Shown here: piece after piece, positions 7,144 through 63,897 of the stretch
Numbering within the stretch: the stretch's first letter is position 1
Layout of the letters: every line of letters starts with the position of its first letter
NCBI GenBank assembly: GCA_958295525.1
Contig: OY282355.1
Coordinates: forward strand, 1,915,931-1,979,930
Reading direction: 5' to 3'
Origin: an uncultured Dehalococcoidia bacterium
GTDB lineage: Bacteria > Chloroflexota > Dehalococcoidia > Lucifugimonadales > Australimonadaceae
Length of the DNA stretch: 64,000 nucleotides
The notes under the pieces: generated by a model
The model's input: the letters and a program-made list of their open reading frames with translations, nothing else
What the model was told of the DNA's origin: nothing
The model's database searches: none
Translations under genes and position numbers: made by a program

Positions 7144-7204
7144 CCCCGGCTTCCCATAAAGCCAACGGCGAGAGCCGGCGCAACGCGCGCCGGCTCTCGT
7201 CGAC

Positions 7205-10811: not shown

Positions 10812-10814
10812 TCG

Positions 10815-11945: not shown

Positions 11946-12035
11946 TGCGCCTCCTCTCCGGCGCCCGCCGTCCGCTGGGCGCGGCGCGTTGCTATCATAC
12001 CCCCGCCCCAACTCCCATCAGTGAAGGAGCATCCT

Positions 12036-12674
12036 ATGGCCCTCGTCTACGACGGCGCGCATCTCGTCTTCAAGGTGGCGGGAATGGGCCCCTACGACAA
12101 CAATGGCTACGTCATCGCCGACCCCGCCACAAGGGAGGCGTATCTCGTGGACGCGCCCGCCGAAGTCGAGCGGCTCATCGCCGAGGCGGACGGCTTCGAC
12201 GTGAAGGGCGTCGTCGTAACGCACACGCACCCCGACCACGTCGCGGGCTACGCCGACCTCAAGCGGCTGACCGGCCTCCCCGTCGCCGTTCACGAGAGCG
12301 ACGCGGGCAGGCTGCCCGGCGAGCCCGATTCGCTGCTCGCCCACAACGACGAACTCCGGGTGGGGGCTGCGCGCGTCCGCGTTCTTCATACCCCCGGGCA
12401 CACGCCGGGCGCGCTCTGCCTCTACGCCGACGGCTCGCTCGTCTCCGGCGACACGCTCTTCCCCGGCGGCCCCGGCCGCACCAACACGCCGGACGACCTG
12501 CGTCAAATCGTCGGCAGCATCGAGGAGCGCCTGCTGACGCTGCCGGACGGCTCGCTCGTGCTCCCCGGGCACGGCGCCGACACGACCATCGCCGCATCGA
12601 GGGAAGAGTACGCGGTGTTCAAGAGCAAGCCGCGCCCAGGTGGTCTGCACGGCCACGTCTCTTGGCTCGGCTAG
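12036..12674 (+). CDS. MBL-fold metallo-hydrolase (glyoxalase II-like)
   Basis: THTHPDH motif, HTPGHTPG, and GDTLF..G.GR. ATG at 12036 preceded by GAAGGAG. The upstream part of track ORF 11571..12674 is rejected. Confidence 0.9.
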   Translation: MALVYDGAHLVFKVAGMGPYDNNGYVIADPATREAYLVDAPAEVERLIAEADGFDVKGVVVTHTHPDHVAGYADLKRLTGLPVAVHESDAGRLPGEPDSLLAHNDELRVGAARVRVLHTPGHTPGALCLYADGSLVSGDTLFPGGPGRTNTPDDLRQIVGSIEERLLTLPDGSLVLPGHGADTTIAASREEYAVFKSKPRPGGLHGHVSWLG

Positions 12675-12688
12675 GAGCGCCGCTCCGC

Positions 12689-15616
12689 CTAGCGCAGGGC
12701 TTCGGCGAGGCGCTCCGCCCAGTGGCTCGGGGTCTTGCTCGTGAAGTGGCCGATCTGCTGCCGACAGGAGACGCCGGAGACGACGACCGGCCAGCCGCGC
12801 TTCTCCGGATCCTCCACGGCGGGGAAGAGTTTGAGCGAGCCCATCGCCTTTGACGTTTCGTAGTGCTCTTTCTCGAACCCGAACGTTCCGGCCATCCCGC
12901 AGCAGGCCGAGTCTATGAGTTCCGGCTCGTAGCCCGCGGCGCGGAGCGCCTCCAGCGTCGGCCCCGCGCCGACGATCGCTTTCTGGTGGCAGTGGCCGTG
13001 CACCTGCACGTTCGCCTGCCCCCGGAGCGCGAACGCGGCGCGGATTTCCTCCGGCTCCTGCGCCGCGAGTTGGGCGACGAGTTCGTCAAGCATCAGCGCT
13101 TTGCCCGCCACGACCCGCGACGCATCGTCGCGCAGCAGTTCCGGGTATTCGTCGCGGAGCGTGAGTAGGCAGGACGGCTCCGTGCCGACGATGAGCGCGC
13201 CGCGGCGGGCGTGAGGCGCGAGAACGTCCACGTTGGCGCGCGCCCAGCGCTTCGCCTTCCCCAGTTGCCCCTTCGAGATAAGCGGCCTGCCGCAGCAGCC
13301 GCGCCGCGTCTCGATCCGAACGGCGTAGCCCAGCGCCTCCAGCACGCGCACGGCGGCCCGGCCGACCTCAGGATGCATATATTCGGTGAACGTGTCGTGG
13401 AAGTAGACAGCCTCCCCGCGCGTTCCGGTTTGCGAGCGCGGGCGGCGGGCGAACCACGACGAGAAGCGGCGGCGGGCGAACTTGGGCAGCGGGCGCCGGC
13501 GCGAGACGCCCAGCAGCCGCTCCGCGGCGGCCCTGGCCGGAGGGAGGCTGCTGAGCAAGTTCGTGAGCGGCGCCGCGGCCTGCCCGATCCTGCTCAGCCG
13601 GGCGACCTCGCCGAACACCCGGGCGCGGAGCGGAACGCCGTGCTTCTCGTAGTATTTGCTCAGCGTTTCGGACTTGAGTTTGGCCATATCCACGTTGGAC
13701 GGGCACTCCGCCTTGCACGCCTTGCACTCGACGCAGAGGTCCATCGTGTCGTAGAGGCGCTTGCCCGTCAGTTCGTCGGCGGGCAGTTTGCCGCTGATGA
13801 TCATCCGCAGCATCGTGGCGCGCGCGCGCGTCGAGTGCTCCTCCTCCCGCGTGGCCATAAACGACGGGCACATGCCGCCGTCCAACTTGCGGCAGGCGCC
13901 CTGGCTGTTGCACATCTCCACGTGCCCCGCGAACCCGCCGTCCGCGCTGAAGTCCAAGTATGTGGGAACGTCGACCGCCCGGTACGCAGGGCCGATGCGG
14001 AGATTCTCCCGAATGCCGGGCGTCTCGATGATCTTCCCCGGGTTCATCACGGAGTCCGGGTCGAACGCCTGCTTGAGTTCCTTGAACGCCTGATATAACT
14101 CGGAGCCGAACATCTTCTCGGTGAAGACGCCCCGCACGATGCCGTCGCCGTGCTCGCCCGTGAGGCTGCCGCCGAACTCCAGCACCAGATCGGCGATATC
14201 CTCCGCGATGGAGGCCATCGTCTCGACGCCTTCCTCTTGCTTGACGTTGACGACGGGGCGAATGTGGAGGCAGCCGGTGGAGGCGTGCCCGTAGTAGGCG
14301 GCCTCCGTGCCGTGCCGCGCGACGATCTCCTCGAACCGCCGAACGTACTCCGGCAATTGCTCCGGCGAGACGGCGGTGTCCTCGACGTAGGGCAGCGGCT
14401 TCGCGTCGCCCTTGAGCGCCATCGCAAGGCCGAGCCCCGCCTCGCGCAGGGCGTACCAGCGCTGCTGCTCCCCGGGGTCGTTCGTGATCATCGTCGCGTA
14501 GCCGTGCCTGCGGCGCTCCATATCCGCCTTCAGCGCATCGAGTTTCCCCTGCACTTCCCGGGGGGAGTCGCCGTAGAACTCGACGAACAGCAACTCGCGC
14601 GGCTCGCCGATGAAATAGTCGAGCAGCCGCCGGTAGCCGGGGTTCACCTTGCAGTTGTCAATGATCATGTGCCCGACCAGTTCCACCGCCGACGGGCTGT
14701 GCTCCAGAATCGGAACCGACGCCTCCATGCAGGCGATCAGGTCGGTGAAGTGGACGACGCCGAGCCCCTTATGCTTAGGCAGCGGCACGAGGTTCACCCG
14801 CGCCTCCGTGACCGCCGCGAGCGTTCCTTCCGACCCCACCACCGCCCGCGTGAGGTTCATCGGGCCGTCGCCGGTGAAATCGTCGAGGTTGTAGCCCATC
14901 ACGCGGCGCAGAATGCGCGGGAAGCGTGCGGCGATCTCGCCGGCGTTCTCCCAGGCGAGGCGGCGCGTCTCGCGGTAGATCGCGCCCTCCAGGTCGTTGC
15001 GGGCGAACTTGTCCTCCAGCGCCTCGCCGTTCACGGGGGCGAAACGCGCGCGGCTGCCGTCGGACAGCACGGCGTCCACCTCCAGAATGTGGTCGAGCGT
15101 CTTGCCGTAGATGACGGAATGCGGCCCGCAGGAGTTGTTGCCGATGCCTCCGCCGACCGTCGCGCGCGCGCTCGTCACCGGGTCGGGCCCGTACATCAGC
15201 CCGTATTGGCGCGCCGCCGCCGAAAGGTGGTTGTTGACGATGCCGGGCTGCACGCGCGCCCACCGCTCCTCCGGCGCGATCTCCAGCACGCTCCGCATAT
15301 GCTTGGAGAAGTCCATCACGACGGCGTGGTTGGTCGTCTGTCCGGCGAGGGCGGTGCCCCCGCCCCGCGGCATCACCGGCACGCCGTGCTCCCGCGCCGT
15401 TCGGATGGTCGCCTCAACGTCGTCCGCGCTCCGGGGCAGCACGACGCCGACGGGCGTCATCTGATAGATCGAGGCGTCGGTGGAGTACATCAGGCGGTCG
15501 TAGGAGTCCATTCGGACTTCGCCCGCGATGCGGCCCCGCAACTTCTCGGCGATGGCACGGACTTCGGAGTCGGCGATGGTCGCGCCTTTGCGCGTCGTTT
15601 CGTGGAGCAGCGGCAT
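12689..15616 (-). CDS. FAD-binding oxidase fused to a (Fe-S)-binding/GlcF-like domain
   Basis: 975 aa. N-terminal FAD-linked oxidase (PRGGGTALAGQ), central CxxCxxCxxxCP ferredoxin-like motifs, and C-terminal Cys-rich CCG-type domains. Confidence 0.9.
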   Translation of the reverse strand: MPLLHETTRKGATIADSEVRAIAEKLRGRIAGEVRMDSYDRLMYSTDASIYQMTPVGVVLPRSADDVEATIRTAREHGVPVMPRGGGTALAGQTTNHAVVMDFSKHMRSVLEIAPEERWARVQPGIVNNHLSAAARQYGLMYGPDPVTSARATVGGGIGNNSCGPHSVIYGKTLDHILEVDAVLSDGSRARFAPVNGEALEDKFARNDLEGAIYRETRRLAWENAGEIAARFPRILRRVMGYNLDDFTGDGPMNLTRAVVGSEGTLAAVTEARVNLVPLPKHKGLGVVHFTDLIACMEASVPILEHSPSAVELVGHMIIDNCKVNPGYRRLLDYFIGEPRELLFVEFYGDSPREVQGKLDALKADMERRRHGYATMITNDPGEQQRWYALREAGLGLAMALKGDAKPLPYVEDTAVSPEQLPEYVRRFEEIVARHGTEAAYYGHASTGCLHIRPVVNVKQEEGVETMASIAEDIADLVLEFGGSLTGEHGDGIVRGVFTEKMFGSELYQAFKELKQAFDPDSVMNPGKIIETPGIRENLRIGPAYRAVDVPTYLDFSADGGFAGHVEMCNSQGACRKLDGGMCPSFMATREEEHSTRARATMLRMIISGKLPADELTGKRLYDTMDLCVECKACKAECPSNVDMAKLKSETLSKYYEKHGVPLRARVFGEVARLSRIGQAAAPLTNLLSSLPPARAAAERLLGVSRRRPLPKFARRRFSSWFARRPRSQTGTRGEAVYFHDTFTEYMHPEVGRAAVRVLEALGYAVRIETRRGCCGRPLISKGQLGKAKRWARANVDVLAPHARRGALIVGTEPSCLLTLRDEYPELLRDDASRVVAGKALMLDELVAQLAAQEPEEIRAAFALRGQANVQVHGHCHQKAIVGAGPTLEALRAAGYEPELIDSACCGMAGTFGFEKEHYETSKAMGSLKLFPAVEDPEKRGWPVVVSGVSCRQQIGHFTSKTPSHWAERLAEALR

Positions 15617-26940: not shown

Positions 26941-27881
26941 TGCGCGTCGCAACCTACCGCAAGTGGTTTTTCGGGTTCTCCGCGCTGCTCGTGCTGCTCT
27001 CCGCCGCCGCGCTCGTCGCGTTCCGCCTGAACCCGGGCATCGATTTCACGGGAGGCGCGGCCATCACGGCCGTCTACGAGACGGAGACGCAGGCTCAGCA
27101 GGTCGCCGACGCGCTCGACTCGGCTGGGCAGCCAGACGCCATTCTGCAGGCCGCCGAGGGCAACACGTTCTTCATCCGGCTCGGCATCTTGGAGTTGGAC
27201 GAGCGCGACGCGGCGGGAACGGTCACCCGGCGCGGGGACGAGTCCCGGGTGCGGGACGCGCTGGCGGCGGTCGGCCCCGTCGAGATCAGTTCGTTCGACT
27301 CCATCTCCGGCATCATCGGGGCGCAGAACGTGCGGAACGCCGCAATCGCGGCGCTGGTGGCGTCCATCGTCATTCTCGTCTACGTGACTTGGGCGTTCCG
27401 GCGGGCGCCGTCGCCGTTCCGCTACGGAGTGGCCGCCGTCGTCGCGCTGGCGCACGACGTGTTCATCGTGCTGGGCGTCTTCTCCGTGCTCGGCGAGACG
27501 ATCAACTTGGAAGTCAACGCGATGTTCATCACGGGCGTGCTCACCACCATCGGCTACAGCGTCAACGACACCATCGTCGTGTTCGACCGCTTGCGCGAGA
27601 ACGGGGCGCGCTACTCCGGCGCGACGACGCGGGAACTGGTTAACCTGAGCATCCGCGAGACGATAGCCCGCTCGCTCAACACGTCCATCACGCTCTTGGT
27701 GGTCGTGGCGGCGCTGATGCTGTTCGCCGGGCCGGCGATACGCCCGCTGCTGTACGTGCTGCTCGCGGGCGTCGCCGTTGGAACGTATAGTTCCATCTTC
27801 ATCGCCAGCCTGATGCTCGTCTCGTGGGACGAGGGAGAAATCGGGCGCTTCTGGCGGCGCGCGCGCTTCAAGAGGGCGTAG
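26940..27881 (+). CDS. secF: protein translocase subunit SecF
   Basis: The ATG overlaps the secD stop (ATGA-type). GIDFTGG and IVVFDRLREN motifs are present. Confidence 0.95.
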   Translation: MRVATYRKWFFGFSALLVLLSAAALVAFRLNPGIDFTGGAAITAVYETETQAQQVADALDSAGQPDAILQAAEGNTFFIRLGILELDERDAAGTVTRRGDESRVRDALAAVGPVEISSFDSISGIIGAQNVRNAAIAALVASIVILVYVTWAFRRAPSPFRYGVAAVVALAHDVFIVLGVFSVLGETINLEVNAMFITGVLTTIGYSVNDTIVVFDRLRENGARYSGATTRELVNLSIRETIARSLNTSITLLVVVAALMLFAGPAIRPLLYVLLAGVAVGTYSSIFIASLMLVSWDEGEIGRFWRRARFKRA

Positions 27882-27985
27882 GCGACTGCCGCGCCATTCT
27901 TGCAGGGAGTAGTCTTACTCCACGTAAGCGGCATTACGCCGCGCCGCCGCCACGCAGGGGCCTATCCCCATTGGAACGGGAGCGA

Positions 27986-30900
27986 ATGCAGGACATATCC
28001 GGGCAGATCAAGTTGTCGGCGAGCGACCTGGCGAACCACCTGGCTTGCCGTCATCTCACAAATCTCAACCTCGCCCTGGCGGAGGGCAAGGTCAAGGCGC
28101 CGCGTCCGACGGGCGCGGACGACGAGATAGAGGAGTTGATCGAGAAGGGCGTCCGGCACGAGCAGGCGTACATCGAGCATCTGCAGGCGGAGAAACCCGG
28201 CGTCAGCGTGATCTCGTTCGAGGACGGAACGTCATCGGCGGACACGGCGCGGGCGATGCGGGACGGCGTGGACGTCATCGCGCAGGCGAGCCTCGAGAGC
28301 GGACGGTGGCGCGGGCGCGCCGACATTCTGCGCCGCGTCGAGCGTCCGAGCGCGCTCGGCGATTGGTCTTACGAGGTCACGGACACGAAACTCGCCCGCG
28401 AAACGAAAGCCGGAACGGTTCTGCAGATCGCGCTCTACTCCGCCATCGTGGGGGAGATTCAAGGCAAGACGCCGGAGATGATGCACGTCGTCACCCCGGG
28501 CATCGAGGAAGATGCCCCGTTCCTCACGGAATCGTTTCGCGCGCAGGATTACCTCGCCTACTACCGGCTGATGCGGGGCAAGTTGGAGGAGGCGGTCGGC
28601 GAAGGGCGCGGGCGCGAGGCGCATGCGATCCCGACGTATCCGGAGCCCGTTCCGCATTGCGACGTTTGCCGGTGGCGGCTGGATTGCGGCGGGCGGCGGC
28701 GGCGGGACGACCACCTCTCGCTCGTGGCGGGGTTCTCCACCGGCCAGCAGCGCGAGGCGCAAGGTTGGGGCATCGCCACGCTGGCGGGACTCGCCAAAGA
28801 GCCGCTTCCGTTCGTTCACCGGCCAAAGCACGGCTCGGTCGCGCCCTACGAACGCGCCCGCGAGCAGGCGCGCGTCCATCTGGAGGGGCGCGAGCGGGGC
28901 GCGCCTTACTACGAATTGCGGCCGCGCGAGCCGGAGCGCGGGCTCGCGCGCTTGCCGGAGCCGTCGCCCGGCGACGTCTTCTTCGACATTGAGGGCGCGC
29001 CGTTCGTGGGGACGCAGGGCTTCGAGTATCTGTTCGGCTGGGCGACGCTCGGCGCGGACGGACAGCCGGAGTACCGCGCGCGCTGGGCGTTCGGGGCGGA
29101 CGGCGCGGGCGGGAGTTTCGCCGCCGGGGAGCGCGCGATTTTCGAGGAGTTCGCGGATTACGTCGAGGCGCGCAGGAAAGCGCATCCCGACTTGCACATC
29201 TTCCATTTCGCGCCCTATGAGCCGAGCGCGCTCAAGCGGCTGATGGGCCGTTACGCGACGCGAGAGGAGGAAGTGGACGGCATGCTGCGCGCCGAACTCT
29301 TCGTTGACTTGCATACGGCGGCGCGGCAAGCCGTTTTCGCCAGCGTCGAGCGCTACTCCATCAAGGACTTGGAGCAGTTCTACGGCTATGCGCGGGAGGT
29401 CGAACTCCACGCCGCCAACGACAACCGCCACTTGCTCGAGCGTCAATTGGAGACGGGGCGGATCCTCGAATTGGAGGCCGACGCGGAGACGCGGGGCGCG
29501 GTCGAGAATATGCGGAACGTCGTGCAGGAGTACAACCGCGACGATTGCGTCTCGACGCTCCGCCTCCGCGACTGGCTGGAGGAACTGCGGCGCGAGCGCA
29601 TTGCGAGCGGCGAGGAGATCGCGCGTCCGGTCGTTGAGATTCCTACGCCGAAGCCGCTCACGGATCGCCAACGGAAAGTGCAGGCGCTGAAAAAACGCCT
29701 GCTTGACGGCGTGCCCGACGGCGGCGAACGCTCGGACGAGGAAGAGGCGCGCTGGCTGACGGCGCACCTGCTGGACTGGCATCGCCGTGAGGCGAAATCC
29801 ACGTGGTGGGAGTACTTCCGCTTGGGCGACCTCGGCGAGGACGAGTTGCGCGACGAGAAGGCCGGGCTCACGGGGCTCACGTTCTCGGGGCGCGACGGCG
29901 GCACCGACAAGGCTCCCGTTCACTGCTATAAGTTCGAGACGCAGGATTCCGCCGTCGGCAAGGGCGACGATGTCCATCAGGTTGGCGGCGAGGCGCTCGG
30001 AACCGTGGAGGCGATTGACTACCTCCAACGGACGGTCGCCATCAAGAAGAGGATGGCGGCGGCGGAAGCCCATCCGACCGCGCTCTACGCCGCCAATCGT
30101 CCCCTCACGACGGACGCGCACGAGGAGTCGCTGCTGCGGATCGGCGAATGGGTCGCCGACAACGGCGTGGACGCGCTGGCCGCGAACTACCGGGCCGCGC
30201 GCGACTTGCTGCTCGCCCGGACGCCCCGCCTATCGCCCGCGCCGGCCAGCGGCGCGCCGCTGTACCTCGAGAAAGAAGAGAACGCGGATGAAGGGGAGAA
30301 GGCGCTGGACGCCGCCAAGCGGCTCGCGCTTCAACTGGACGGCGGCGTCCTCCCGATTCAGGGCCCGCCGGGCACGGGCAAGACCTACACCGCCGCGCGA
30401 ATGATCTGCGAACTCGTCCGCAGCGGCAAGAAGGTCGGCGTCACGGCGAACAGCCACAGCGTGATTCGCAAGCTGCTCGACGCGGTGGTGGAGGCCGCCC
30501 AAGAGAAAGGGCTGGAACTGCGCTGCGTTCAGAAGGTGAGCGAAGCGCCCGAAAACGCGGAAGGCAACCCGATCACGGAGACCGACGCGAACGACGTCCT
30601 GCTGAACCTGCTCGCCGACGGCCAGGCGCAGGTCGGCGCGGGAACGTCGTGGGTTTGGTCAAGGGAAGAGTTCGCGGATTCCCTTGACGCGCTCTTCATA
30701 GACGAGGCGGGGCAAATGTCGCTGGCGAACGCGCTCGCGGTCGCGCCCGCCGCCGCGAACATCGTGCTGCTCGGCGACCCGCAGCAACTGGAGCAGCCGC
30801 AGCAGGGAAGCCACCCGGAGGGCGCGGACGCCTCGGCGTTGGAGCGCTTGCTCGGCGGGCGGCAAACCATCCCGCCCGACCGGGGCATCTTCCTCCGCAA

Positions 30901-31525
30901 AACCTTCCGAATGCACCCGAACATCTGCGCGTTCACGTCGGAACTCTTCTACGACAACCTGCTGACCTCGCAGCCCGATCTCGTGCATCAGGCGGTCAGC
31001 GGAGCGGGCGAGTTGGACGGCGCCGGACTGCGGCTGATTCCCGTGGCGCACGAGGGCAATCAGAGTTCGTCGGTCGAGGAGGCGGAGCGCGTAGCCGCCC
31101 TCCACCGCCAACTGATGAGCGGCGGCGCGGAGTGGACGGACATGCATGGCGAATCGCGTCCGCTCACGGAAGAGGACATTCTCATCGTCGCGCCGTACAA
31201 CGCGCACTTGGCGGAGATCGGGAAACTGCTGCCCCGCGGCGCCCGCTTCGGCACCGTCGACAAGTTTCAGGGGCAAGAGGCGCCGGTCGTGATCTACTCA
31301 ATGGCCACGTCGTCGCCGGAGGAAGCGCCGCGCGGGATGGAGTTCTTGTACAGCCTCAACCGGCTGAACGTCGCGACGTCGCGGGCGCGGTGCGTCAGCG
31401 TTCTCGCCGCCAGCCCGCTCCTCTTCGAGCCGGAATGCAAGACGCCCCGTCAGATGCGGCTCGCCAACGCGCTCTGCCGCTACTTGGAGATCGTAAAGGC
31501 GCAAAGCGCCCTCCATCCCGCATAG
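27986..31525 (+). CDS. RecB-like (TM0106-type) PD-(D/E)XK nuclease / RNase H-like domain / SF1B (Upf1-Dna2-like) helicase fusion
   Basis: ATG at 27986. The N-terminus has GRADIL...YEVTDTKLA (D..D/E-x-K) and the HCDVCRWRLDC cysteines. The middle has VFFDIEGAP...HIFHFAPYEPSALKRL. The C-terminus has GPPGTGKT, FIDEAGQ, GDPQQL, TVDKFQGQE and VATSRAR. Confidence 0.85.
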   Translation: MQDISGQIKLSASDLANHLACRHLTNLNLALAEGKVKAPRPTGADDEIEELIEKGVRHEQAYIEHLQAEKPGVSVISFEDGTSSADTARAMRDGVDVIAQASLESGRWRGRADILRRVERPSALGDWSYEVTDTKLARETKAGTVLQIALYSAIVGEIQGKTPEMMHVVTPGIEEDAPFLTESFRAQDYLAYYRLMRGKLEEAVGEGRGREAHAIPTYPEPVPHCDVCRWRLDCGGRRRRDDHLSLVAGFSTGQQREAQGWGIATLAGLAKEPLPFVHRPKHGSVAPYERAREQARVHLEGRERGAPYYELRPREPERGLARLPEPSPGDVFFDIEGAPFVGTQGFEYLFGWATLGADGQPEYRARWAFGADGAGGSFAAGERAIFEEFADYVEARRKAHPDLHIFHFAPYEPSALKRLMGRYATREEEVDGMLRAELFVDLHTAARQAVFASVERYSIKDLEQFYGYAREVELHAANDNRHLLERQLETGRILELEADAETRGAVENMRNVVQEYNRDDCVSTLRLRDWLEELRRERIASGEEIARPVVEIPTPKPLTDRQRKVQALKKRLLDGVPDGGERSDEEEARWLTAHLLDWHRREAKSTWWEYFRLGDLGEDELRDEKAGLTGLTFSGRDGGTDKAPVHCYKFETQDSAVGKGDDVHQVGGEALGTVEAIDYLQRTVAIKKRMAAAEAHPTALYAANRPLTTDAHEESLLRIGEWVADNGVDALAANYRAARDLLLARTPRLSPAPASGAPLYLEKEENADEGEKALDAAKRLALQLDGGVLPIQGPPGTGKTYTAARMICELVRSGKKVGVTANSHSVIRKLLDAVVEAAQEKGLELRCVQKVSEAPENAEGNPITETDANDVLLNLLADGQAQVGAGTSWVWSREEFADSLDALFIDEAGQMSLANALAVAPAAANIVLLGDPQQLEQPQQGSHPEGADASALERLLGGRQTIPPDRGIFLRKTFRMHPNICAFTSELFYDNLLTSQPDLVHQAVSGAGELDGAGLRLIPVAHEGNQSSSVEEAERVAALHRQLMSGGAEWTDMHGESRPLTEEDILIVAPYNAHLAEIGKLLPRGARFGTVDKFQGQEAPVVIYSMATSSPEEAPRGMEFLYSLNRLNVATSRARCVSVLAASPLLFEPECKTPRQMRLANALCRYLEIVKAQSALHPA

Positions 31526-31546
31526 GCGGGAACGACCGATGGGGGC

Positions 31547-31659
31547 GGGAATCCCGCCTTCGCGGGATGACGGGCAAGGGGCGAGATTCCCGCCTTCGCG
31601 GGAATGACGGACATGGGGACTGCGCGCCCGACTGGATTCCCGCCTTCGCGGGAATGACG
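31547..31659 (+). repeat. cluster of three REP-like palindromic elements
   Basis: Copies at 31547-31572, 31583-31609 and 31632-31659. All carry loop CTTC: (G)ATTCCCGCCTTCGCGGGAATGACG (the first copy lacks one stem base, GCGGGAT). Confidence 0.85.
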
Positions 31660-31711: not shown

Positions 31712-33757
31712 TTACAGCGGCGGCATGCCGCCGCCGAGCGCGAACTCCGCGCTCCAAACCTCGCCTTGCGGGCCGAACTGCCCCGTTCGGATGGACACGA
31801 CGGGATACTCCGGCAACGAAACCGTCGCTACGCACTTCCCATCGAACAGCGCGCCATTGAGAAAGAAATCAAAGTCCAAGTTGTCGAAGCCGTGCTCGCG
31901 CCGCTCCTGCGGCAAGTCGTCCGTCCGCTCCGGGACGATATGCAGAAAGAAGCGATGCCCCGTATCTTCCTGAGCGCACTCCTCTTTGACGTACGTCAAC
32001 TGGCCGTCCGTCATGTGCAGATCGAATACGGAGCGCGCCACGGGCTCACCCGCTGCTGCGGCGCGGTAGGCCGCGCGGTAGGGTTCGGGATTCAGCCGGA
32101 CATTCGCGCTCCACAGGTCGCTCTCGTCCTGCGGGTTCCGCTGCCCCGTTCGGAAGGCGGCGATGGAGTAGTCGGGCAAAGGAACGAGCGCGACGCACGC
32201 GCCGTTCAACAGCATCCCATAGTGACGGAATTCGAAATCGAAGATGGAGTAGCCGGCCTCGCGCCGCTCCTGAAGCAAATCATCCATCCTCTCAGGGGCG
32301 ATATGCAGAAAGAAGCGCTTCTCCGCGTCTTCCTGATCGCACTCTTCTTTGACGTACACCAAACGTCCGTCCGTGAGGTGCAGATCGAATACGGAGCGCG
32401 CCACAGGCTCGCCCGCCACCACGGTTCGGTAGGCCGTCTGGTAGTAGGGCGTCAAGTCCAGCCCTCGGAGCCCCGGATAGTCAGGCGCGTAACGATAGGC
32501 GCGATAGACCAGGTCGTAGCCCAATTCGGGATTCACGAACTCCCAGACCATCTCGCCTTCCCGCGTGACCTCGAAAATTCGTTCGGCATCCCCGGCGGTG
32601 ATTAGCGTGTCGCCGTTCGGCAGCCGCTGCGCGCCCGACGATCTATGAGCGTAAAAGGCATCGGGCGGATCGGCGGCGTATGTCCAAACGCGCTCGTTAG
32701 GGCCGTAGGTGGAGCCTTCGTCCAAGCGATAGTTGTAGCCGTCGGCGGGCAAGGATATCTCGTCCACGGACGAGTAGCCGCGCTCCATTCCGGGATATTC
32801 CGATCCGTTATTGAAAATGAGAACGTTGCCTGCGCCCGGCAATCCTTCCGGAATCCAGTGGGCGTTGTGCGGCCAGAAGAGGCGCTGATCGGCTAATGTT
32901 CCCCTTTGGTATGCGCGCGGGTTGCCCCAGCGGTAGAGCAGGTCGCCGCCTTTGCCGCTGTTCCCGCCGGCGCTCCCGGCGGCCTCTTCCGCGTTCGTGG
33001 AGTGATCAATGATCCATATCTCGCTGAAATGCCGGACGGTGAGCATAATTTGATCCAAATCCTCGTTGTAGTCCAATGCATTAGCATGCTGCCAGTTGAG
33101 ATGGCGACCCCTAGAGCAAGTCTCTTCGGCGAGCGCAAAATTGATGTCTATGCGTTCAGGGTGGTCCACGACGACTCCGTAGTTCGATTTCTCCGGATCG
33201 AAGTCCTGGATGGTGTGGTCGAACGTCGACCATTGCCAGACGATCTCGCCGTCCACCGGTCCCGTAGGCCGAATTTCGACAATATGCGTTGCCCTTAGGG
33301 CGGGACAAGCAATCGAGCCCGGGTTGGCGCCGAGCGCGATAGCCTCCTCGCGCGAAATGAAGACGTGGGACAGGCTGAGTATGTTCCCATTCGGCATTTT
33401 GAGAAGGTCGTGATGCTGGAGGTAACGATAATTCCAAACGGCGTTCCCGTCAGCGTCAAATATCCTGTTGCCGCTTGTCAGCAAGTTCCCGTCATCGAGC
33501 AGTTTCACTAGACGCGGGTTATGCCTCAATGTCCACGTGTGAACAACTCGTCCGTGGTTGTCGATCAGGTAAGCAAGGCCTGAAAACCGTGGAGTGAAGA
33601 GGGTATAGCCATCGAACGCCTCCGGTTCGTTCACAAGCAGCCCTGTTGCCCGATGGGTCGGCTCCGGCGCAGCAGTGGGAGTGGGCGTAGGGGCGAGCGT
33701 AGGCGTCGGCGCAGGCGATGGAGCGCCGGCGGAGCATGCGGCGAGCAGCGCAGGCAA
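31712..33757 (-). CDS. arylsulfotransferase (ASST)-family beta-propeller protein, probable lipoprotein, with two C-terminal 120-aa repeats; start unresolved
   Basis: ASST-like blocks include HHDLLKMPNGN, WQHANALDYNEDLDQIMLTVRHFSEIWIIDH, LYRWGNP, and GAQRLPNGDTLIT. The first canonical start (TTG 33757) truncates the signal peptide. Confidence 0.8.
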   Translation of the reverse strand: MPALLAACSAGAPSPAPTPTLAPTPTPTAAPEPTHRATGLLVNEPEAFDGYTLFTPRFSGLAYLIDNHGRVVHTWTLRHNPRLVKLLDDGNLLTSGNRIFDADGNAVWNYRYLQHHDLLKMPNGNILSLSHVFISREEAIALGANPGSIACPALRATHIVEIRPTGPVDGEIVWQWSTFDHTIQDFDPEKSNYGVVVDHPERIDINFALAEETCSRGRHLNWQHANALDYNEDLDQIMLTVRHFSEIWIIDHSTNAEEAAGSAGGNSGKGGDLLYRWGNPRAYQRGTLADQRLFWPHNAHWIPEGLPGAGNVLIFNNGSEYPGMERGYSSVDEISLPADGYNYRLDEGSTYGPNERVWTYAADPPDAFYAHRSSGAQRLPNGDTLITAGDAERIFEVTREGEMVWEFVNPELGYDLVYRAYRYAPDYPGLRGLDLTPYYQTAYRTVVAGEPVARSVFDLHLTDGRLVYVKEECDQEDAEKRFFLHIAPERMDDLLQERREAGYSIFDFEFRHYGMLLNGACVALVPLPDYSIAAFRTGQRNPQDESDLWSANVRLNPEPYRAAYRAAAAGEPVARSVFDLHMTDGQLTYVKEECAQEDTGHRFFLHIVPERTDDLPQERREHGFDNLDFDFFLNGALFDGKCVATVSLPEYPVVSIRTGQFGPQGEVWSAEFALGGGMPPL

Positions 33758-33946: not shown

Positions 33947-34141
33947 GAGATTCCCGCCTACGCGGGAATGACGAGGGAGGGGGACGAGATTCCCGCCTGC
34001 GCGGGAATGACGGGGCACAGGGGCGAGATTCCCGCCTACGCGGGAATGACGAGGGAGGGGGACGAGGTTCCCGCCTACGCGGGAATGACGGGGCAAGGGC
34101 GCTTGCGCGCCGACTGGATTCCCGCCTGCGCGGGAATGACG
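33947..34141 (+). repeat. tandem array of five REP-like palindromic elements (periods 39, 39, 39, 50 nt)
   Basis: Copies at 33947-33973, 33986-34012, 34025-34051, 34064-34090 and 34114-34141. Positions 33943-34020 and 34021-34098 form a 78-bp tandem duplication with about 4 mismatches. Confidence 0.9.
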
Positions 34142-58334: not shown

Positions 58335-58362
58335 CTGGATTCCCGCCTGCGCGGGAATGACG
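58335..58362 (+). repeat. REP-like palindromic element
   Basis: CTGGATTCCCGCCTGCGCGGGAATGACG. Confidence 0.8.
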
Positions 58363-58422
58363 ATTGCAGTAGGTCTCGCGCTCTCAGCGGCTGCGTTCGG
58401 CGTCGCTCATAGGAATAGTGTG

Positions 58423-59067
58423 CTAGGGCGAGGGGGCAGCGGTTTCGCCGAAGAGGTCGCGGAGCCAGTCGGTGAAGCGAACGCAAAGCGGGCCGTCAAC
58501 AGACAGGTCAAGCGACTTGATCGCCAGACCCGGCGGACGCGGCTCTTCTCTCGCGGCAAGCCAAGCGTGCACTTGCGCCCGCAAACGCTTGCCTTCTTTG
58601 AACTTCCGATGCCCTTTCGGGATGCCGTCAATGTAACTCTGCGCGAGCGGCCAGACTGCATCGTCGGCAGGGATCATTTTCTGCAGGAAATCCTCAAGTT
58701 CCCCGGGCGACTGGTTATCGGGCATCATCCAAACCCCAACGCGGGGCAGCCCAGTTGAGGGATCGCTGTCGACAATGGCGCCTGCTGACAGCGGGTTGAG
58801 AGGCAGATCGATCCCTGCGTCGTAGAGCCTGCCCCGCACTGCCTGCCACCTGTTCTCAGGATGGTCGTTCGCGTCGAGAATTATGCCCAGAACCGTCCGT
58901 TCCTCACTGGTGACCGCACGGTAGATGGCGTCCAACAACTGGTGAACGCCGTTCTTGGCCAGCACGGGGAATTCGGGAATCGGCGGAGACAAATTCGCGC
59001 AGATGTTGAGCGCAACGTGCTTATCGGTTTCGCCTTCCACGAGCAATAGTTTTTCAGGGTTAGCCAT
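58423..59067 (-). CDS. Toprim-like small protein (DUF3226/DUF4435/RloB-like class), partner of the upstream ATPase
   Basis: 214 aa. It starts LLLVEGETDKHV (conserved Glu) and later has GIILDANDH (DxD-like), the Toprim acidic signature. Lies 5 nt downstream of the ATPase gene. Confidence 0.7.
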   Translation of the reverse strand: MANPEKLLLVEGETDKHVALNICANLSPPIPEFPVLAKNGVHQLLDAIYRAVTSEERTVLGIILDANDHPENRWQAVRGRLYDAGIDLPLNPLSAGAIVDSDPSTGLPRVGVWMMPDNQSPGELEDFLQKMIPADDAVWPLAQSYIDGIPKGHRKFKEGKRLRAQVHAWLAAREEPRPPGLAIKSLDLSVDGPLCVRFTDWLRDLFGETAAPSP

Positions 59068-59072
59068 GCGGT

Positions 59073-60326
59073 TTACCGCACTTCCAGTCCTTGCTCATCG
59101 GGGATGGCAAGTTCGTGCTCGTCGTACTCGACCGCATGCAGCGTTCCGCCTTTTCTCGACAGGCGAACGAGAATGCCCTCAACCTCCTTGTTCTCATTCG
59201 CCGCATTCTCATTCGCCGCGATCGCTTCCGCGAAGCCGCGAATGCAATCCGCGCTGTGCGTCGTGGCGATCACCTGCACGTTGTTGGCCTGCGCGGTCTG
59301 CAAAACCATGCGCCAGAAGGCGCTCTGCACTGTGTAGTGCAAGCCGTTCTCCGCCTCGTCAATGAGCAGGAAGCCGTTCTTGCTGTTCGCAAGCGCTAGC
59401 GCAACGCTGTAGAGACGCAGCGCGCCATCGCCAAGACTTTTTAACGGCACTACAGGAGACGAACCATTCGAGGCGACCTTTACGACGGCTCTACGGCCGG
59501 ATCGTGTTTCTCTAGCATCGCCAACCATGTAAACGCTCTCCACCGCATCACCGAATATCATACTGAGAGGCTCTCTTGCGAAGGTATCCTCCCCTTCGTT
59601 GACGGCGTTGTCCCACAAACGCGCGAGCGTAGCGTTGGCTGGCAGTCCAGGGCCTAACATTTCGCATTTAATGGAGCGCGATGGCTCTTCCGTATCGATT
59701 GGCCGTCGGGTAGAGGCTCCACGATCAGCGAACGATGGCCGACGTCCAATTATTGCCCGCGGTATGCTTATTCCTTCACTTGAAAACAACCAAGGAATTA
59801 TCCATGTGCGTCCGCCAATCGTTGCCCTGAGCACGTACCATACTCCGTCCAAGACATGCGGAGAAAATCTCGCAAGGTCGATATAGGGGGATTCTAACTC
59901 GCTCGCAGGGCTAACCGTCACCGTTAGCATTCCGCTGCCCTGGCTCCCGATTGAAACACAAACTCCTTCTGACGGGGCGCGACCGTAAAAAAGCGCGGCG
60001 GCGTTCGTAGCGAGCACAGGATCGCCGTCCTCGTCAAGGCTAGTGACGGTCTCCTCGCGGCTCCTCAGTATCCCTGACAGGGCTTCAGCGCTCGCGCGCG
60101 CCGCATAGACGCGCACCGCCTCCAGCACGGTCGACTTCCCGATGCCGTTCTTGCCTGCGATGAGCGTGACGCGCCCCAGGCGGGGAATCGTGAGCGCGTC
60201 GATCCCCCGGAACCCCTCTATCGTGAGGTCCCGCAGGTGGAGCGGCGGCGCGTCGCCCGCGAGCCGTTCCTGCGGAGGTTGCTCCGTGATCGTCATAGGG
60301 GAGAGTGTAGCGCTTGGGGCGCCCAT
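59073..60326 (-). CDS. ABC-type AAA_15/AAA_21-family ATPase
   Basis: Walker A LIAGKNGIGKST, signature-like LKSLGDGALRL, Walker B FLLIDEAENGLH, and an H-loop ATTHS. The start could be ATG 60296. Confidence 0.85.
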   Translation of the reverse strand: MGAPSATLSPMTITEQPPQERLAGDAPPLHLRDLTIEGFRGIDALTIPRLGRVTLIAGKNGIGKSTVLEAVRVYAARASAEALSGILRSREETVTSLDEDGDPVLATNAAALFYGRAPSEGVCVSIGSQGSGMLTVTVSPASELESPYIDLARFSPHVLDGVWYVLRATIGGRTWIIPWLFSSEGISIPRAIIGRRPSFADRGASTRRPIDTEEPSRSIKCEMLGPGLPANATLARLWDNAVNEGEDTFAREPLSMIFGDAVESVYMVGDARETRSGRRAVVKVASNGSSPVVPLKSLGDGALRLYSVALALANSKNGFLLIDEAENGLHYTVQSAFWRMVLQTAQANNVQVIATTHSADCIRGFAEAIAANENAANENKEVEGILVRLSRKGGTLHAVEYDEHELAIPDEQGLEVR

Positions 60327-60392
60327 TGCAAGCCTTTGCGCCTGCGCCGTGCGGAAGGCTTCGGAGGCGCATTGGCGCGCTCCGATGGGCTA

Positions 60393-60420
60393 CGGGATTC
60401 CCGCCTGCGCGGGAATGACG
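60393..60420 (+). repeat. REP-like palindromic element
   Basis: CGGGATTCCCGCCTGCGCGGGAATGACG. Confidence 0.8.
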
Positions 60421-60468: not shown

Positions 60469-60506
60469 AGAGAACGCCCCCGCCGTTGCCGGCGGGGGCG
60501 TTCTCT
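60469..60506 (-). terminator. strong hairpin, probable factor-independent terminator of the surface-protein gene
   Basis: Perfect 17-bp inverted repeat AGAGAACGCCCCCGCCG / CGGCGGGGGCGTTCTCT with a 4-nt loop, 29 nt after the stop at 60535. There is no clear U-tract. Confidence 0.55.
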
Positions 60507-60534: not shown

Positions 60535-63500
60535 TTACGGGACCAGCGTGCTGGGGCGCTGCGACCAGACCCAGTAGCCGGAGCCGTTCAGGATCTCGTT
60601 GTTGCAGACCTCAGGGGTGGTCGCGTCCTCATCGGCGTCCGAGCAGCCGACACTCGCTTTCGGCGTGTAGCGCGTCCAGACGCTCTGCTGCGTGTCGTAG
60701 GAGTAGGCGACCTTCCACGGGATGCTGTTGAAGTAGGTGTCCGCCTCGCCGTAGACCTCGGTGCCCGGCGCTTCGCCGGCCGCCTGCTGATCAATGTCTA
60801 TGACGCCGAGCAAGTTCCAGCCGGCGGTGACCGGCACCGTGGGCGGCGTGGACGCCGGGTCGATCTCCGTCAGCAGCGTCGAGATCGTCTCGAATGTCCG
60901 GGCGTTCACCCAGTAGCCGTAGCCGGCCGTGATGTCCGTCAGCGTCCCTTGCCAGCCGTCATCCGTGCGGCGAGCCGTCAGCCAGTCGCCGTTCTGGTAG
61001 GCGAGCACCGGAGTGAGGAACTCCGTCTTGGACAAGACGTTGGCGATGGCCGTGTCTTCGGGGTCGCCGGGCAGCGAGACCAAGTTCCAGCCAGGCTTGA
61101 CCTCGACTTTGTACGGCTTCCGGGCGATCACCTCGAAGGTGAACGAGCCGTCGTTGTACTCGTTCCCCGCGTCGTCCCTGGCCTTGTAGGTCAACTTGTA
61201 CCTGCCGACCTCTTTGTCGCGGAGCACCACCGAGAACTCATTCTTGGCCACGCGGCTCATTTGGCCGGTCACGTCCGCGCCGTCCAGTTCGATCTCGGTG
61301 ATTTCCACCGTGCCGTGGGAGTCTTTGAACGCGCCCTCGGCGTACTCGCTGCCTTCCTCTTTGAACTGCAGCCGGATGAACGGGTTGGGGCTCTCCGTCT
61401 TCTTCGTGTCGGCGCCGCTGCGCGGCGTCACGCTCTCGTCAAGGTTCGCGGAGGCGGAGCCGCCGTTGAACGCCGTGTCCACCTCCACGAGAAGGTCGGC
61501 GTCGTCCACCTTCTGCACGTCGAGCGGGGCGTTGAGGGCGATGGTGGGATTGATGTTGGCCCGATGCGCGATGTTCTCCAAGCCGGGCGTCATTCGGACG
61601 TTCCCTTCGCTGTCGTCGCGCGCGACCACGAACATTGCGATCAGTCCCTCGACTCCGCTCAAGTCGCTCACTTTGCAGTCGCGCTTCCAGTGGCGGTCGT
61701 CTTCCTGCGGCGTGAGGTTGCAATTCGGGTACGGGCTCGGGCTGTCCGCGGTGGCGTAGGTGTACCCGGTCGCCGGCTCCGTCTCTTCGTTGGCCTTGAT
61801 GGGCACGAACAAGACGCTGGGGCGCCCGTTCAAGTCCTCGTCCGAGCGCACCTCGACGGTGAACGAGCCCTTCGCGCTGTTGGCGACGGGGCGGTCGCCC
61901 TTGGCTCCGGTCACCGTGACCGTCAGCACGGGGGCGATCCAGTCGTCCGCGTCTTTTTCGACGGCCTTGTCGAGCGTGTTGCCGGCCAAGTCCTGCGCGA
62001 CGCCGCTGAGCAGCGCCACCGTGGGCGTGTCGTCGCTGCCGAGCGGAGTCGCCAACTGGATGTACACGCGCTGCCGCGGGTCGGGAAGTTGGCCGGCGTC
62101 GCCGGCGTCGGCTATGGCCTCGCCCGGGCACAGGTTCGGGTTGGGAATTTGCGCAGGGTGATTGGGGTTGGGAATCATATCGCCGGGGGCAGCGTTAGGG
62201 TCGGGGTCTTGAATCAGGGGGGCAGGGTCGGGGTTGGCGATCATCGCGTCCAGCGTGCAGTCCCCAGGGTCGACGTCGTCCGTCTGCCCGCGGAAGGTCT
62301 TCGGCCCTTGGTTGGGCTGAATCACTCCGGTGACCCGGTTGTCTGTGACGGTGATCTGGTCCAGGCGAATCTCGCCGGCCTTGATCGCCTCGTTGAACGT
62401 CAGCGCAATGGACGAAAGGTTGACAACCTCCCTGTTCTTGGCGTTGTCGTAGGAGATGCCCGTGCGGACGGCGCCGAGCGTGGGCTTCCCATCGTCCACG
62501 GTGAAGAGGTAAGGCTCTTTCGTGTCGGGGCTGTCGAGTTCGGCGTCCGAGGTCGCCAGGTTGCCGACGCGGTCCATCGCGGTTATCTGCAGGTTGTTCA
62601 CGCCGTCGGGGTAGGTGGCGCCGCTCGCCGAGAAGGCGTAGCCGAAGCCGGCGCGGCCGATGAGCGTCCACGCGCCCTGGTCGGTGATGTCTTCGCTGCG
62701 GTTCACGTTGGCGACCGCTCTATCCGTCAGCCTGTCGCCAACGGGGTCTCTGCTCCAATAGACGGCTTGGATTTCGGCGGCTTTGCCGTTGGTCAAACCG
62801 AAGAGCGCAGTGGGGGCGGCCATAGAGAGCGGCTCCGACGCGCGGTTGCCGTCGCGGTCGGGGTCGATGGAGCCGGGGTCGCCGTCCGAAGTGAGGGCGA
62901 GTTCGCCGTCGTGGCGCAGACCGGCGTCGTGGTCGCGAACTTCAAAGCGGAACGAGAGGTTGGACGAGCGGACGACGCTCGTGTCCACCGGGCTGATCAG
63001 GTTGATCTCGGGGGCTTCAGCGTCCACGACGAGGACGATGTTGCTTGGCTGGCCCTCGATGCGAACGTTCAGCCGGTCGTTGTGGCGCGCCCTGATCTGC
63101 CCGATCAGGTCCGGGTCGTCCAGGATAGGGTCGCCGTTGGCGTCCACAACCGGGATCTGGGAGCCGGGGCTGTCGGGGTCAGGCATCATGTCCTGAGCGC
63201 CGTCGTAGTTGGAGCAACGGGGCCCGTGGACGTCGCTCAGCGGGGTCGCCGCGTTCGCGTCCACGACCTTGAAGAACGCCTGCACGTCGCGGACAGCGGG
63301 GGTTCCGGTCGACAAGCCGCTGGTTTCGACGAGCGGAACGTTAATGCTCCCGCCGGTTCGCGGGTTGGAGACGATGGCTTTGGGGTAGAGCGCGCAACGG
63401 GTGGGGACCGTCGAGCCATCGGGGTTGTTCACCTTGTAACTGATGAGCGCCGTGTTGTAGGCCTCGTCGGTGTTGCCGATGTAGAGCAATCCGCCGGAGC

Positions 63501-63897
63501 GGGTGTTTCGGGTGTCAACGTAGCCCATCGTCAGGAAGGCGGGGTTGGTCACGTCGATCGTGCCGTCGGGGGTTGAAGGGGTGACGCCGGGGAATGTGCC
63601 GCCCACCACGAGGGAGCCGAGGGAGCCGTCGGCGTCAGCGGTGTCAGCGCCGGGCAGGTAGAACGGAATCGGGTTGCCGTCGCCATCCACGCGGTTGGTG
63701 TTGGTCGTTCGCACGAGGCGGACGGTCTGGGCGTCGGCCACGTCGTCGAAGACGCCGACTTGGAGGTCGCCGGTCTTCGTTCTGCCCTCCGTCTGAACGA
63801 TGTCGTCGTCCGTTTGGCCGAACGCAGGCATCAGGAAGAGCAGCGAGAGCGCCCCTGCCAGCAGTGTCGCTATGATCGGAATCCTCGTGAATCTCAC
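60535..63897 (-). CDS. large secreted cell-surface protein (S-layer/adhesin-like)
   Basis: 1120 aa. Signal peptide MRFTRIPIIATLLAGALSLLFLMPAFGQ, followed by an acidic, Thr/Asp/Gly/Pro-rich beta-type sequence. The C-terminal module is duplicated: GWNLVSLPG...GYGYWV and GWNLLGV...GSGYWVW. Confidence 0.8.
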   Translation of the reverse strand: MRFTRIPIIATLLAGALSLLFLMPAFGQTDDDIVQTEGRTKTGDLQVGVFDDVADAQTVRLVRTTNTNRVDGDGNPIPFYLPGADTADADGSLGSLVVGGTFPGVTPSTPDGTIDVTNPAFLTMGYVDTRNTRSGGLLYIGNTDEAYNTALISYKVNNPDGSTVPTRCALYPKAIVSNPRTGGSINVPLVETSGLSTGTPAVRDVQAFFKVVDANAATPLSDVHGPRCSNYDGAQDMMPDPDSPGSQIPVVDANGDPILDDPDLIGQIRARHNDRLNVRIEGQPSNIVLVVDAEAPEINLISPVDTSVVRSSNLSFRFEVRDHDAGLRHDGELALTSDGDPGSIDPDRDGNRASEPLSMAAPTALFGLTNGKAAEIQAVYWSRDPVGDRLTDRAVANVNRSEDITDQGAWTLIGRAGFGYAFSASGATYPDGVNNLQITAMDRVGNLATSDAELDSPDTKEPYLFTVDDGKPTLGAVRTGISYDNAKNREVVNLSSIALTFNEAIKAGEIRLDQITVTDNRVTGVIQPNQGPKTFRGQTDDVDPGDCTLDAMIANPDPAPLIQDPDPNAAPGDMIPNPNHPAQIPNPNLCPGEAIADAGDAGQLPDPRQRVYIQLATPLGSDDTPTVALLSGVAQDLAGNTLDKAVEKDADDWIAPVLTVTVTGAKGDRPVANSAKGSFTVEVRSDEDLNGRPSVLFVPIKANEETEPATGYTYATADSPSPYPNCNLTPQEDDRHWKRDCKVSDLSGVEGLIAMFVVARDDSEGNVRMTPGLENIAHRANINPTIALNAPLDVQKVDDADLLVEVDTAFNGGSASANLDESVTPRSGADTKKTESPNPFIRLQFKEEGSEYAEGAFKDSHGTVEITEIELDGADVTGQMSRVAKNEFSVVLRDKEVGRYKLTYKARDDAGNEYNDGSFTFEVIARKPYKVEVKPGWNLVSLPGDPEDTAIANVLSKTEFLTPVLAYQNGDWLTARRTDDGWQGTLTDITAGYGYWVNARTFETISTLLTEIDPASTPPTVPVTAGWNLLGVIDIDQQAAGEAPGTEVYGEADTYFNSIPWKVAYSYDTQQSVWTRYTPKASVGCSDADEDATTPEVCNNEILNGSGYWVWSQRPSTLVP

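Follow-up and report, generated by a model that had tools for sequence, protein, structure and literature searches.

Pairs of an ABC ATPase and a Toprim nuclease are among the commonest plans in prokaryotic immunity, with OLD, Gabija, PARIS, AbiL and retron effectors as examples, and studies exist for only a few of its branches. In a stretch of 64,000 nucleotides of contig OY282355.1 (GenBank assembly GCA_958295525.1) from an uncultured Dehalococcoidia bacterium, herein called the window, two adjacent minus-strand genes encode an ATPase of this kind and a small protein of the Pfam family DUF3226, which together correspond to the candidate system PDC-M38 of the PADLOC database. In our assessment, this pair is probably a horizontally mobile operon that codes for an anti-phage module of two components, in the class that combines an OLD-ABC ATPase with a Toprim nuclease, whereby the function in defence is predicted by analogy to the systems named above.

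The closest described systems give a framework for the comparison. In PARIS, a hexamer of the ATPase keeps the Toprim effector AriB sequestered and lets it go when phage proteins are sensed, and AriB is a two-metal tRNase (PMC12409363). In the OLD nuclease of B. pseudomallei (Bp OLD), the Toprim glutamate E400 and the DxD motif (D455/D457) bind metal A, the ligands of metal B are E404, T506 and E508, where the helical domain begins, and K562 within this domain is also needed (Schiltz et al., PMC6755086). The PDC entries of PADLOC are 145 untested candidates that were collected from cassettes within BREX, DISARM and type I restriction-modification systems, a principle termed ‘guilt-by-embedding’ (bioRxiv 10.1101/2024.01.29.577857), and according to a comparative study from 2026, dyads of OLD-ABC and TOPRIM proteins are pervasive as backup effectors that are embedded in BREX and in DUF499-centred systems (PMC12839542).

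The two open reading frames (ORFs) of the pair are the following:

59073–60326, minus strand: gene of the ABC-type (OLD/SMC-like) ATPase (PDC-M38A), 417 amino acids (aa)
58423–59067, minus strand: DUF3226 gene (PDC-M38B), 214 aa, downstream of the ATPase gene

According to this ORF reading, both genes are transcribed in the same direction with a gap of 5 nt between them, exactly at the coordinates of the original prediction, which had been made from the letters of the sequence and had described the pair as a candidate PARIS/AbiL/OLD-like defence system. It had also proposed hidden Markov model (HMM) searches with both proteins, a structure prediction of the smaller one, and a survey of the gene neighbourhood, and the results of these three analyses are given below.

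The ATPase is matched by Pfam AAA_15 (3.6e-19) and AAA_21 (3e-18), which are the types to which it had been assigned beforehand, and PADLOC-DB agrees, as the PDC-M38A model PDLC04611 matches with 7.5e-69 (231 bits) and four further PDC-M38A models match with 1e-22 to 1e-31. Weaker PADLOC matches were obtained with AbiLi (PDLC02336, 1.1e-40, 138 bits), AriA (6.7e-22 and 1.1e-18), GajA (5.8e-16), HEC-01A (4.7e-16) and also PtuA, and there are weak matches to SMC_N and RecF models. All nucleotide-binding motifs that had been quoted originally are indeed present:

60129–60155, minus strand: Walker A / P-loop GKNGIGKST, residues 58–66; G58, N60, G63 and K64 invariant in 38 homologues
59424–59438, minus strand: ABC signature SLGDG, residues 297–301; S297, L298, G299 and D300 invariant in the 38 homologues
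59355–59372, minus strand: Walker B FLLIDE, residues 319–324, followed by ENGxH; D323, E324, E326, N327 and H330 invariant
59253–59264, minus strand: H-loop TTHS, residues 355–358; T355 and T356 invariant, H357 nearly so

The signature is part of the sequence LKSLGDGALRL (residues 295–305) and the Walker B region reads LLIDEAENGLH (residues 320–330). The motif columns are invariant or near-invariant not only in the 38 database homologues, but also in 67 ORFs of related loci. An AlphaFold2 (AF2) model of the ATPase reached a pLDDT of 80.7, and its best Foldseek matches are the heads of SMC and Rad50 proteins and the Septu/retron ATPase PtuA (E ~1e-11), from which it follows that this is an ABC-type head and not an AAA+ fold. 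Between Walker A and signature, residues ~93–225 form an insertion that is predicted to consist mostly of beta-strands, partly with low confidence. In the model, this beta-rich insertion occupies the place of the SMC coiled coil, and the ATPase appears to have no coiled coil. It is poorly conserved in the family and contains a disordered stretch (residues 191–212), and on the basis of the model it can be regarded as a candidate for the trigger-sensing region. As the first 28 residues of the ORF are unconserved and poorly modelled, the start codon of the ATPase gene is uncertain.

The small protein had originally been considered unassignable to any named subfamily. This can now be revised, as it is matched over nearly its entire length by Pfam DUF3226 (PF11536; 8e-49, 166.7 bits at a cut-off of 27, profile positions 2–207 of 208) and by PADLOC PDC-M38B (PDLC04624, 1.2e-37 over residues 5–206; PDLC04623, 9.1e-24), and PDC-M38B is matched as well by all 40 DUF3226 relatives that we collected. 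NCBIfam and PHROGs gave no model for this protein. The AF2 model (pLDDT 91.9, pTM 0.86) has a core with the order beta-alpha-beta-alpha-beta-alpha-beta, after which helices follow. The top three Foldseek matches in the PDB are 6njx, 6njv and 6nk8 (probability 0.97–1.0, template-modelling (TM) score 0.46–0.50, full-length alignments), all of which are C-terminal catalytic regions of class 2 OLD proteins from X. campestris and B. pseudomallei, and lesser matches include the PARIS complex, the Toprim domain of RNase M5, the small Toprim protein 2fcj, topoisomerase I and gyrase. A Foldseek comparison with viral predicted structures gave nothing significant, with weak matches to primase Toprim domains. 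At the level of profiles, PF20469 (OLD-like_TOPRIM) has sub-threshold matches in 12 of the 40 family members (best E 0.012), and HEC-01B is matched by 11 of them, with an E-value of 0.016 over 60 residues for the protein of the window. The structure prediction is therewith consistent, though with a weak signal, with a DUF3226 protein that adopts a Toprim-plus-helical fold of the OLD type, and none of these searches placed the protein in a non-nuclease family.

Three segments of the small protein carry the residues that are predicted to form the active site:

59023–59049, minus strand: Toprim motif 1, LLLVEGETD, residues 7–15; strand beta-1 (residues 6–10), then E11 and D15
58864–58875, minus strand: Toprim motif 2, D65-A-N67-D68 (DxD position), where strand beta-3 (residues 59–66) ends
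58687–58725, minus strand: acidic segment MPDNQSPGELEDF, residues 115–127, where Toprim strand beta-4 meets the helical domain with its first helix

The first two comprise the acidic motifs that had already been recognized as Toprim-like, namely LLLVEGETDKHV (residues 7–18) and GIILDANDH (residues 61–69), and family alignments show which positions matter. E11 and G12 are invariant in the 40 sequences and are kept even in plasmid homologues of 25–32% identity, and position 15 stays acidic, with D15 being retained in nearly all of these plasmid homologues. D65 is invariant as well, and position 67 is D or N throughout the family, so that the motif reads D-x-D/N. In the third segment, M115, P116, N118, G122 and E125 are invariant even among distant members. 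Residue 163, just before A164, is usually basic (R163 here, K in distant members), with K160 as a further basic residue nearby. At the place of the conserved Toprim glycine behind strand 2, G40 (in KNG), which follows the strand of residues 35–37, is the majority residue in the family and not invariant. If the residues are paired with those of Bp OLD by their position in the predicted secondary structure, which is not a superposition, the following counterparts are suggested:

E11, directly after strand 1: Bp OLD E400
D15, four residues past E11: Bp OLD E404
D65-x-N67, at the end of strand 3: Bp OLD D455/D457
G122-E-L-E125, just past strand 4: Bp OLD T506/E508
R163 (also K160), in the helical part: Bp OLD K562

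Such a conservation pattern is the one that would be expected of an active two-metal Toprim nuclease.

How does the pair relate to the named systems? Judged from its sequences, it belongs to Pfam DUF3226 and to PADLOC PDC-M38, as its directly adjacent, co-directional and tightly spaced genes match the A and the B models over their full lengths, and there is no structural difference between PDC-M38 and the pair of the window. With OLD it shares the combination of an ABC ATPase and a Toprim nuclease, the model of DUF3226 is closest to the Toprim-plus-helical region of class 2, and DUF3226 appears to keep positional counterparts of the metal-A and metal-B ligands as well as the basic residue of the helical part. 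In contrast, the OLD proteins of class 1 and class 2, such as Old of phage P2 and those of B. pseudomallei and X. campestris, are single polypeptides, whereas two separate genes are found in the window and in all related loci, and class 2 OLD has an adjacent UvrD/PcrA-like helicase, which the pair lacks and for which no recurrent helicase cluster was found in 80 loci. PARIS resembles the pair in its split two-gene order, with the ATPase first and the Toprim effector second, and its AriA is matched by the ATPase (6.7e-22), but far more weakly than PDC-M38A (7.5e-69) and AbiLi (1.1e-40). AriB/DUF4435 gave no match in the small protein or in the 40 relatives at E-values up to 10, the Foldseek comparison of DUF3226 with the PARIS complex (8ux9_A) reached a probability of only 0.21 and a TM of 0.26, and the effector is shorter (214 aa versus ~300 aa in AriB). 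PARIS responds to anti-restriction proteins of phages and cleaves tRNA of the host, and neither this trigger nor this target is known to apply to the pair. AbiL, known from lactococcal plasmids, likewise couples an ATPase to a Toprim-like protein in two genes, and its AbiLi model is the one that matches with 1.1e-40, but the RloB-like AbiLii is not matched by the small protein and by only one of the 40 relatives (E 0.023), and RloB-type Pfam families gave no match either. In case of Gabija, the models of the fused ATPase-Toprim protein GajA match the ATPase part only, the genes of the window are split, and there is no GajB helicase neighbour. HEC-01 has the same architecture of ABC ATPase and TOPRIM protein and shares the embedding in DUF1156/DUF499 ‘Hma’/BREX-related operons, but both of its subunits belong to separate HMM families, with links to the pair that are weak and nevertheless recurrent (HEC-01A 4.7e-16). 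With an effector of another family and with separate genes, the pair falls strictly outside PARIS, AbiL and fused OLD, and what holds of the originally suggested PARIS/AbiL/OLD-like identity is the likeness at the level of the ATPase/Toprim class.

By analogy to PARIS, Gabija and OLD, an oligomer of the ATPase would sense an infection cue and keep the nuclease in check as long as this cue is absent. A trigger would then free or activate the DUF3226 protein as a two-metal nuclease, and the cleavage of nucleic acid would halt the replication of the phage, whereby the cell would probably be sacrificed in an abortive infection. With regard to the substrate, DNA is slightly favoured by the models, since the whole effector aligns with the DNase region of OLD and only poorly with AriB, and tRNA or other RNA, as in AriB, would be possible as well.

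The distribution of the family agrees with a mobile element. With a profile of 40 proteins, we found 464 DUF3226-encoding stretches among 185,579 species-representative genomes of GTDB, with hosts in the Dehalococcoidia and other Chloroflexota, Latescibacterota, Gemmatimonadota, Rhodothermales, Spirochaetia, Acidimicrobiales, Binatia, Alphaproteobacteria and others, and the same profile finds 3,814 clusters at 50% identity in 1.84 billion representative proteins. No fusion of ATPase and DUF3226 was detected among the best 150 representatives, which are all stand-alone proteins of 145–274 aa, and tblastn against 50,697 phage genomes did not find the family. For the gene neighbourhood, we used 83 fetched loci to assess linkage, 80 loci of GTDB species to assess context, and 75 loci to assess composition. 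An ATPase homologue is encoded immediately upstream on the same strand in all 83 loci (a few are frameshifted), and the spacing of the two genes in annotated examples ranges from an overlap of 4 nt to +5 nt. Clustering of all flanking ORFs from the 80 species loci revealed no third conserved gene. The survey thus describes a strictly conserved pair in variable contexts.

These contexts often contain defence genes. The commonest specific neighbours are Eco57I-type IIG restriction-modification genes, which lie within 10 kb in 22 of the 80 loci. In six of the 80 (L046, L047, L058, L067, L038 and L065), the pair is located between an upstream DUF1156 methylase gene and a downstream gene of a HEPN_Swt1-DUF499 ATPase, all on the same strand, at about 5,000–15,000 in each locus. 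Mostly these loci are from Latescibacterota, in addition to metagenome-assembled genomes of Caldilineaceae, Rhodothermales and Azotimanducaceae. Here the pair is embedded in a ‘Hma’/BREX-related operon, and this is an independent reproduction of the guilt-by-embedding signal. A phage portal gene is present in another type of context, again in six of the 80 loci, and directly upstream of the pair in four of them (L016, L050, L054 and L069, all Dehalococcoidia), where the portal gene has the same direction and ends ~90–130 nt before the ATPase start, an arrangement that suggests a prophage moron or hotspot as the place of carriage. Other contexts include a gene of a CAP12-type TIR protein, PhdYeFM/PIN and HicB toxin-antitoxin genes, GmrSD_C, methylases and transposases. 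Small plasmids of Acinetobacter, clinical ones among them, and a Plesiomonas megaplasmid, on which P2-like tail genes are adjacent, carry more distant pairs, again with the ATPase upstream. One of them lies at 343–2180 of plasmid p4_060092 of Acinetobacter cumulans (L152), a tet(39) resistance plasmid of 9.7 kb, with an overlap of 4 nt between the genes and related copies on five other Acinetobacter plasmids. These plasmid pairs are representatives of the family in cultured hosts and can be cloned.

The finding on the Acinetobacter plasmid leads to an alternative, namely that the pair is a selfish addiction or maintenance cassette, similar to toxin-antitoxin or plasmid-stabilization systems, in which a nuclease toxin would be restrained by the ATPase. 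The cassette would then persist on mobile DNA because its loss is harmful, and not through a protection from phages. The 9.7-kb plasmid carries little besides replication genes, tet(39) and the pair, the GC content is consistently low, the variable contexts include transposases and toxin-antitoxin pairs, and Pfam describes AAA_21 as ‘putative AbiEii toxin’ domain. However, the recurrence in or beside restriction-modification and BREX-related operons is the signature by which defence genes are predicted, and the architecture is that of the proven defence systems PARIS, Gabija and OLD. We therefore regard pure addiction as rather unlikely, and it needs to be considered that addiction and defence by abortive infection are compatible with each other, which makes this alternative partly a matter of emphasis.

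The composition of the locus supports a foreign origin. The module has a guanine-plus-cytosine (GC) content of 0.599 as compared to a mean of 0.681 in the window and ranks in the lowest 1.3% of all 1.9-kb windows, as had been noted in a qualitative way in the original prediction. At third codon positions (GC3), the values are 0.67–0.71 in the two genes and 0.86–0.89 in the genes of UvrB, the amidohydrolase and the surface protein, i.e. about 0.2 lower, and this atypical GC3 supports a foreign origin of the pair. The same tendency is seen in the family, in which the pair averages 5.5 GC points below its flanks across the 75 loci and is lower than these in 88% of them. Taken together, the data fit a mobile, defence-associated cassette.

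Against this background, a housekeeping function can be evaluated, in which the two proteins would act as ATPase-nuclease pair in DNA repair or recombination in the manner of SbcCD, RecF/RecN or Rad50-Mre11, with a position near uvrB that serves repair. The resemblance of the ATPase model to SMC/Rad50 heads, the weak SMC_N and RecF matches, and uvrB at a distance of two genes in the window are in line with such a role, but the sporadic occurrence in 464 stretches out of 185,579 species genomes from unrelated phyla, a GC3 far under that of host genes, and an ATPase that appears to lack the coiled coil are not, and uvrB adjoins the pair in none of the 80 surveyed loci. Synteny speaks against it, too. 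In a search for synteny or empty sites in 65 metagenome loci with relatives of the amidohydrolase that is encoded next to the pair, neither the pair nor uvrB nor any other neighbour was found nearby in case of the 25 relatives with 49–87% identity, and even those with 86–87% identity had no other gene in common with the window. Due to this lack of shared genes, the search could show no empty site at this position and no conserved operon either. Distribution, composition and the lack of synteny exclude a conserved housekeeping operon, and a repair function of the pair is accordingly very improbable.

The pair is flanked by two copies of a repetitive extragenic palindromic (REP) element:

58337–58362, plus strand: REP copy downstream of the pair, exact 26-nt repeat GGATTCCCGCCTGCGCGGGAATGACG
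60395–60420, plus strand: REP copy upstream of the pair, exact 26-nt repeat GGATTCCCGCCTGCGCGGGAATGACG

One REP copy in the same orientation on each side of the pair had been described before, and the copies are indeed identical over 26 nt, with coordinates 2 nt inside the ones given at that time. A further REP near ~60430 is a degenerate partial copy. The REP sequence is absent from all other fetched loci, and in the window 11 copies with at most 3 mismatches occur at six intergenic sites, with none being expected by chance. The two copies beside the pair are thus flanking context and no functional part of it. The possibility that the REP copies represent ends of a mobile element was rejected, as the repeat is present at six intergenic sites of the window. 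Since the element is dispersed in the genome, flanking REPs alone are weak evidence of an insertion, and the proposed accessory insertion is upheld by GC3 and variable contexts. Of the six intergenic sites with REPs, four border on two of the three segments of the window that have the lowest GC, and as a weaker possibility, REPs may mark sites of foreign-gene capture or accumulate there.

The second of the lowest-GC segments contains a type II restriction-modification pair on the minus strand (2519–4002, GC ~0.59–0.60), which looks like another horizontally acquired defence module:

2519–3217, minus strand: MvaI/BcnI-family endonuclease gene (2.4e-26)
3214–4002, minus strand: N6_N4 methylase gene (6.3e-35), overlapping the endonuclease gene by 4 nt

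The third one is an arylsulfotransferase-like gene (31712–33757, minus strand, 681 aa), which is bracketed by REPs of the same orientation (31526–31659 and 33948–34141). Two or three REPs are located upstream of this gene, and a head-to-tail array of five copies, with a spacing of 39 nt and of 51 nt for the last one, is found downstream. A plus-strand gene at 27824–31525, which ends just before the first pair of these REPs, encodes a protein of 1233 aa with an RNase_H_2-type nuclease and a superfamily 1 helicase (AAA_11/AAA_12).

The immediate neighbours of the pair are an Amidohydro_2 gene downstream (ORF of 399 aa), as had been recognized originally, and a gene at 60535–63897 (minus strand) on the other side, which codes for a protein of 1120 aa with Ig-like matches (Big_13, CopC) that are all weak and sub-threshold. 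An exact-protein look-up with the 399-aa amidohydrolase ORF gave no match. In a contig of a second metagenome assembly (L086), an identical DUF3226 protein is encoded, and this contig is 100% identical to the window across 6,962 bp and gives no independent context. It reaches beyond the end of the window, where two genes of 252 and 958 aa follow. These (154–4234 of L086) have zero Pfam matches, and together with the 1120-aa gene they encode a run of uncharacterized proteins that are probably secreted or at the surface. A scan of the whole window with Rfam resulted in zero matches, so that there is no RNA component and no marker for taxonomy.

Between the ATPase gene and the 1120-aa gene, there is an intergenic region of 208 nt, which must contain the promoter of the pair. 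A perfect inverted repeat of 17 bp with a loop of 4 nt, rich in G+C, is found at 60469–60506, which is 29 nt past the stop of the 1120-aa gene (60535), and this hairpin is probably the terminator of that surface-protein gene. From the hairpin to the ATPase start, ~140 nt are left for a promoter, and a part of this space is taken by the REP. A scan with a terminator consensus was as uninformative as the promoter scan.

What weighs against a defence function of the pair? In this genome, it lies outside any defence island, with neighbours that are housekeeping genes (UvrB, an epimerase and the amidohydrolase), and a sigma-70-like promoter was not found upstream, whereby the consensus was that of E. 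coli and may not be that of the host. A search with the protein and the 40-sequence profile against all PDB chains found no solved structure, so that the link to OLD and Toprim comes from fold comparison only, and in this comparison the Foldseek E-values for Toprim folds are weak (4e-3 at best, up to 0.3) with TM values of ~0.5, which are borderline. At the second acidic position of the DxD motif, this protein and the majority of its close relatives have Asn. What is said above on substrate, trigger and stoichiometry is inference, and a full-text literature search with both names gave no paper in which PDC-M38 or a DUF3226 protein had been tested by experiment. Two other PADLOC candidates showed no defence in a native host, which is a reminder that a candidate is not yet a proven system. 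For HEC-01, no protection was obtained in the original assay (bioRxiv 10.1101/2024.01.29.577857), and experimental results on this system conflict.

Some of these points would also fit the idea that the pair was recently acquired and is a non-functional or silent passenger in this organism, being intact by chance or weakly expressed. The location outside a defence island and the upstream region without a recognizable sigma-70-like promoter, which holds a REP and the terminator hairpin of the neighbour, are compatible with this, as are the atypically long N-terminus of the ATPase and the frameshifted ATPase genes at L007, L025, L026 and L079. On the other hand, both ORFs of the window are intact with all catalytic and nucleotide-binding residues preserved, the promoter scan covered an E. 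coli-type consensus only, which may not apply to the host, and the identical sequence was recovered in a second, independent metagenome assembly. A mere passenger is in our view distinctly unlikely, and a two-component anti-phage module is the explanation that we prefer for the pair.

Beyond the locus itself, we see about even chances that PDC-M38 is a working immune module with the smallest OLD-like Toprim effector, in which case the beta-rich insertion of the ATPase could sense another trigger than those of PARIS, Gabija or OLD, and in which the target, DNA or a specific RNA, may differ as well. The conceptual gain past the predictions of PADLOC and of comparative genomics is small, as systems of this kind are already catalogued, and the practical value lies in an annotated PDC-M38 candidate with named residues, i.e. 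K64 and D323/E324 of the ATPase and E11, D15, D65, N67 and E125 of the DUF3226 protein. The locus of the window is a clean, intact, minimal and clonable example of the large DUF3226 branch. Once characterized, PDC-M38 would become a further named system, and its homologues, which number in the thousands, are particularly common in uncultured marine and symbiont lineages of the Chloroflexota, Latescibacterota and Gemmatimonadota.

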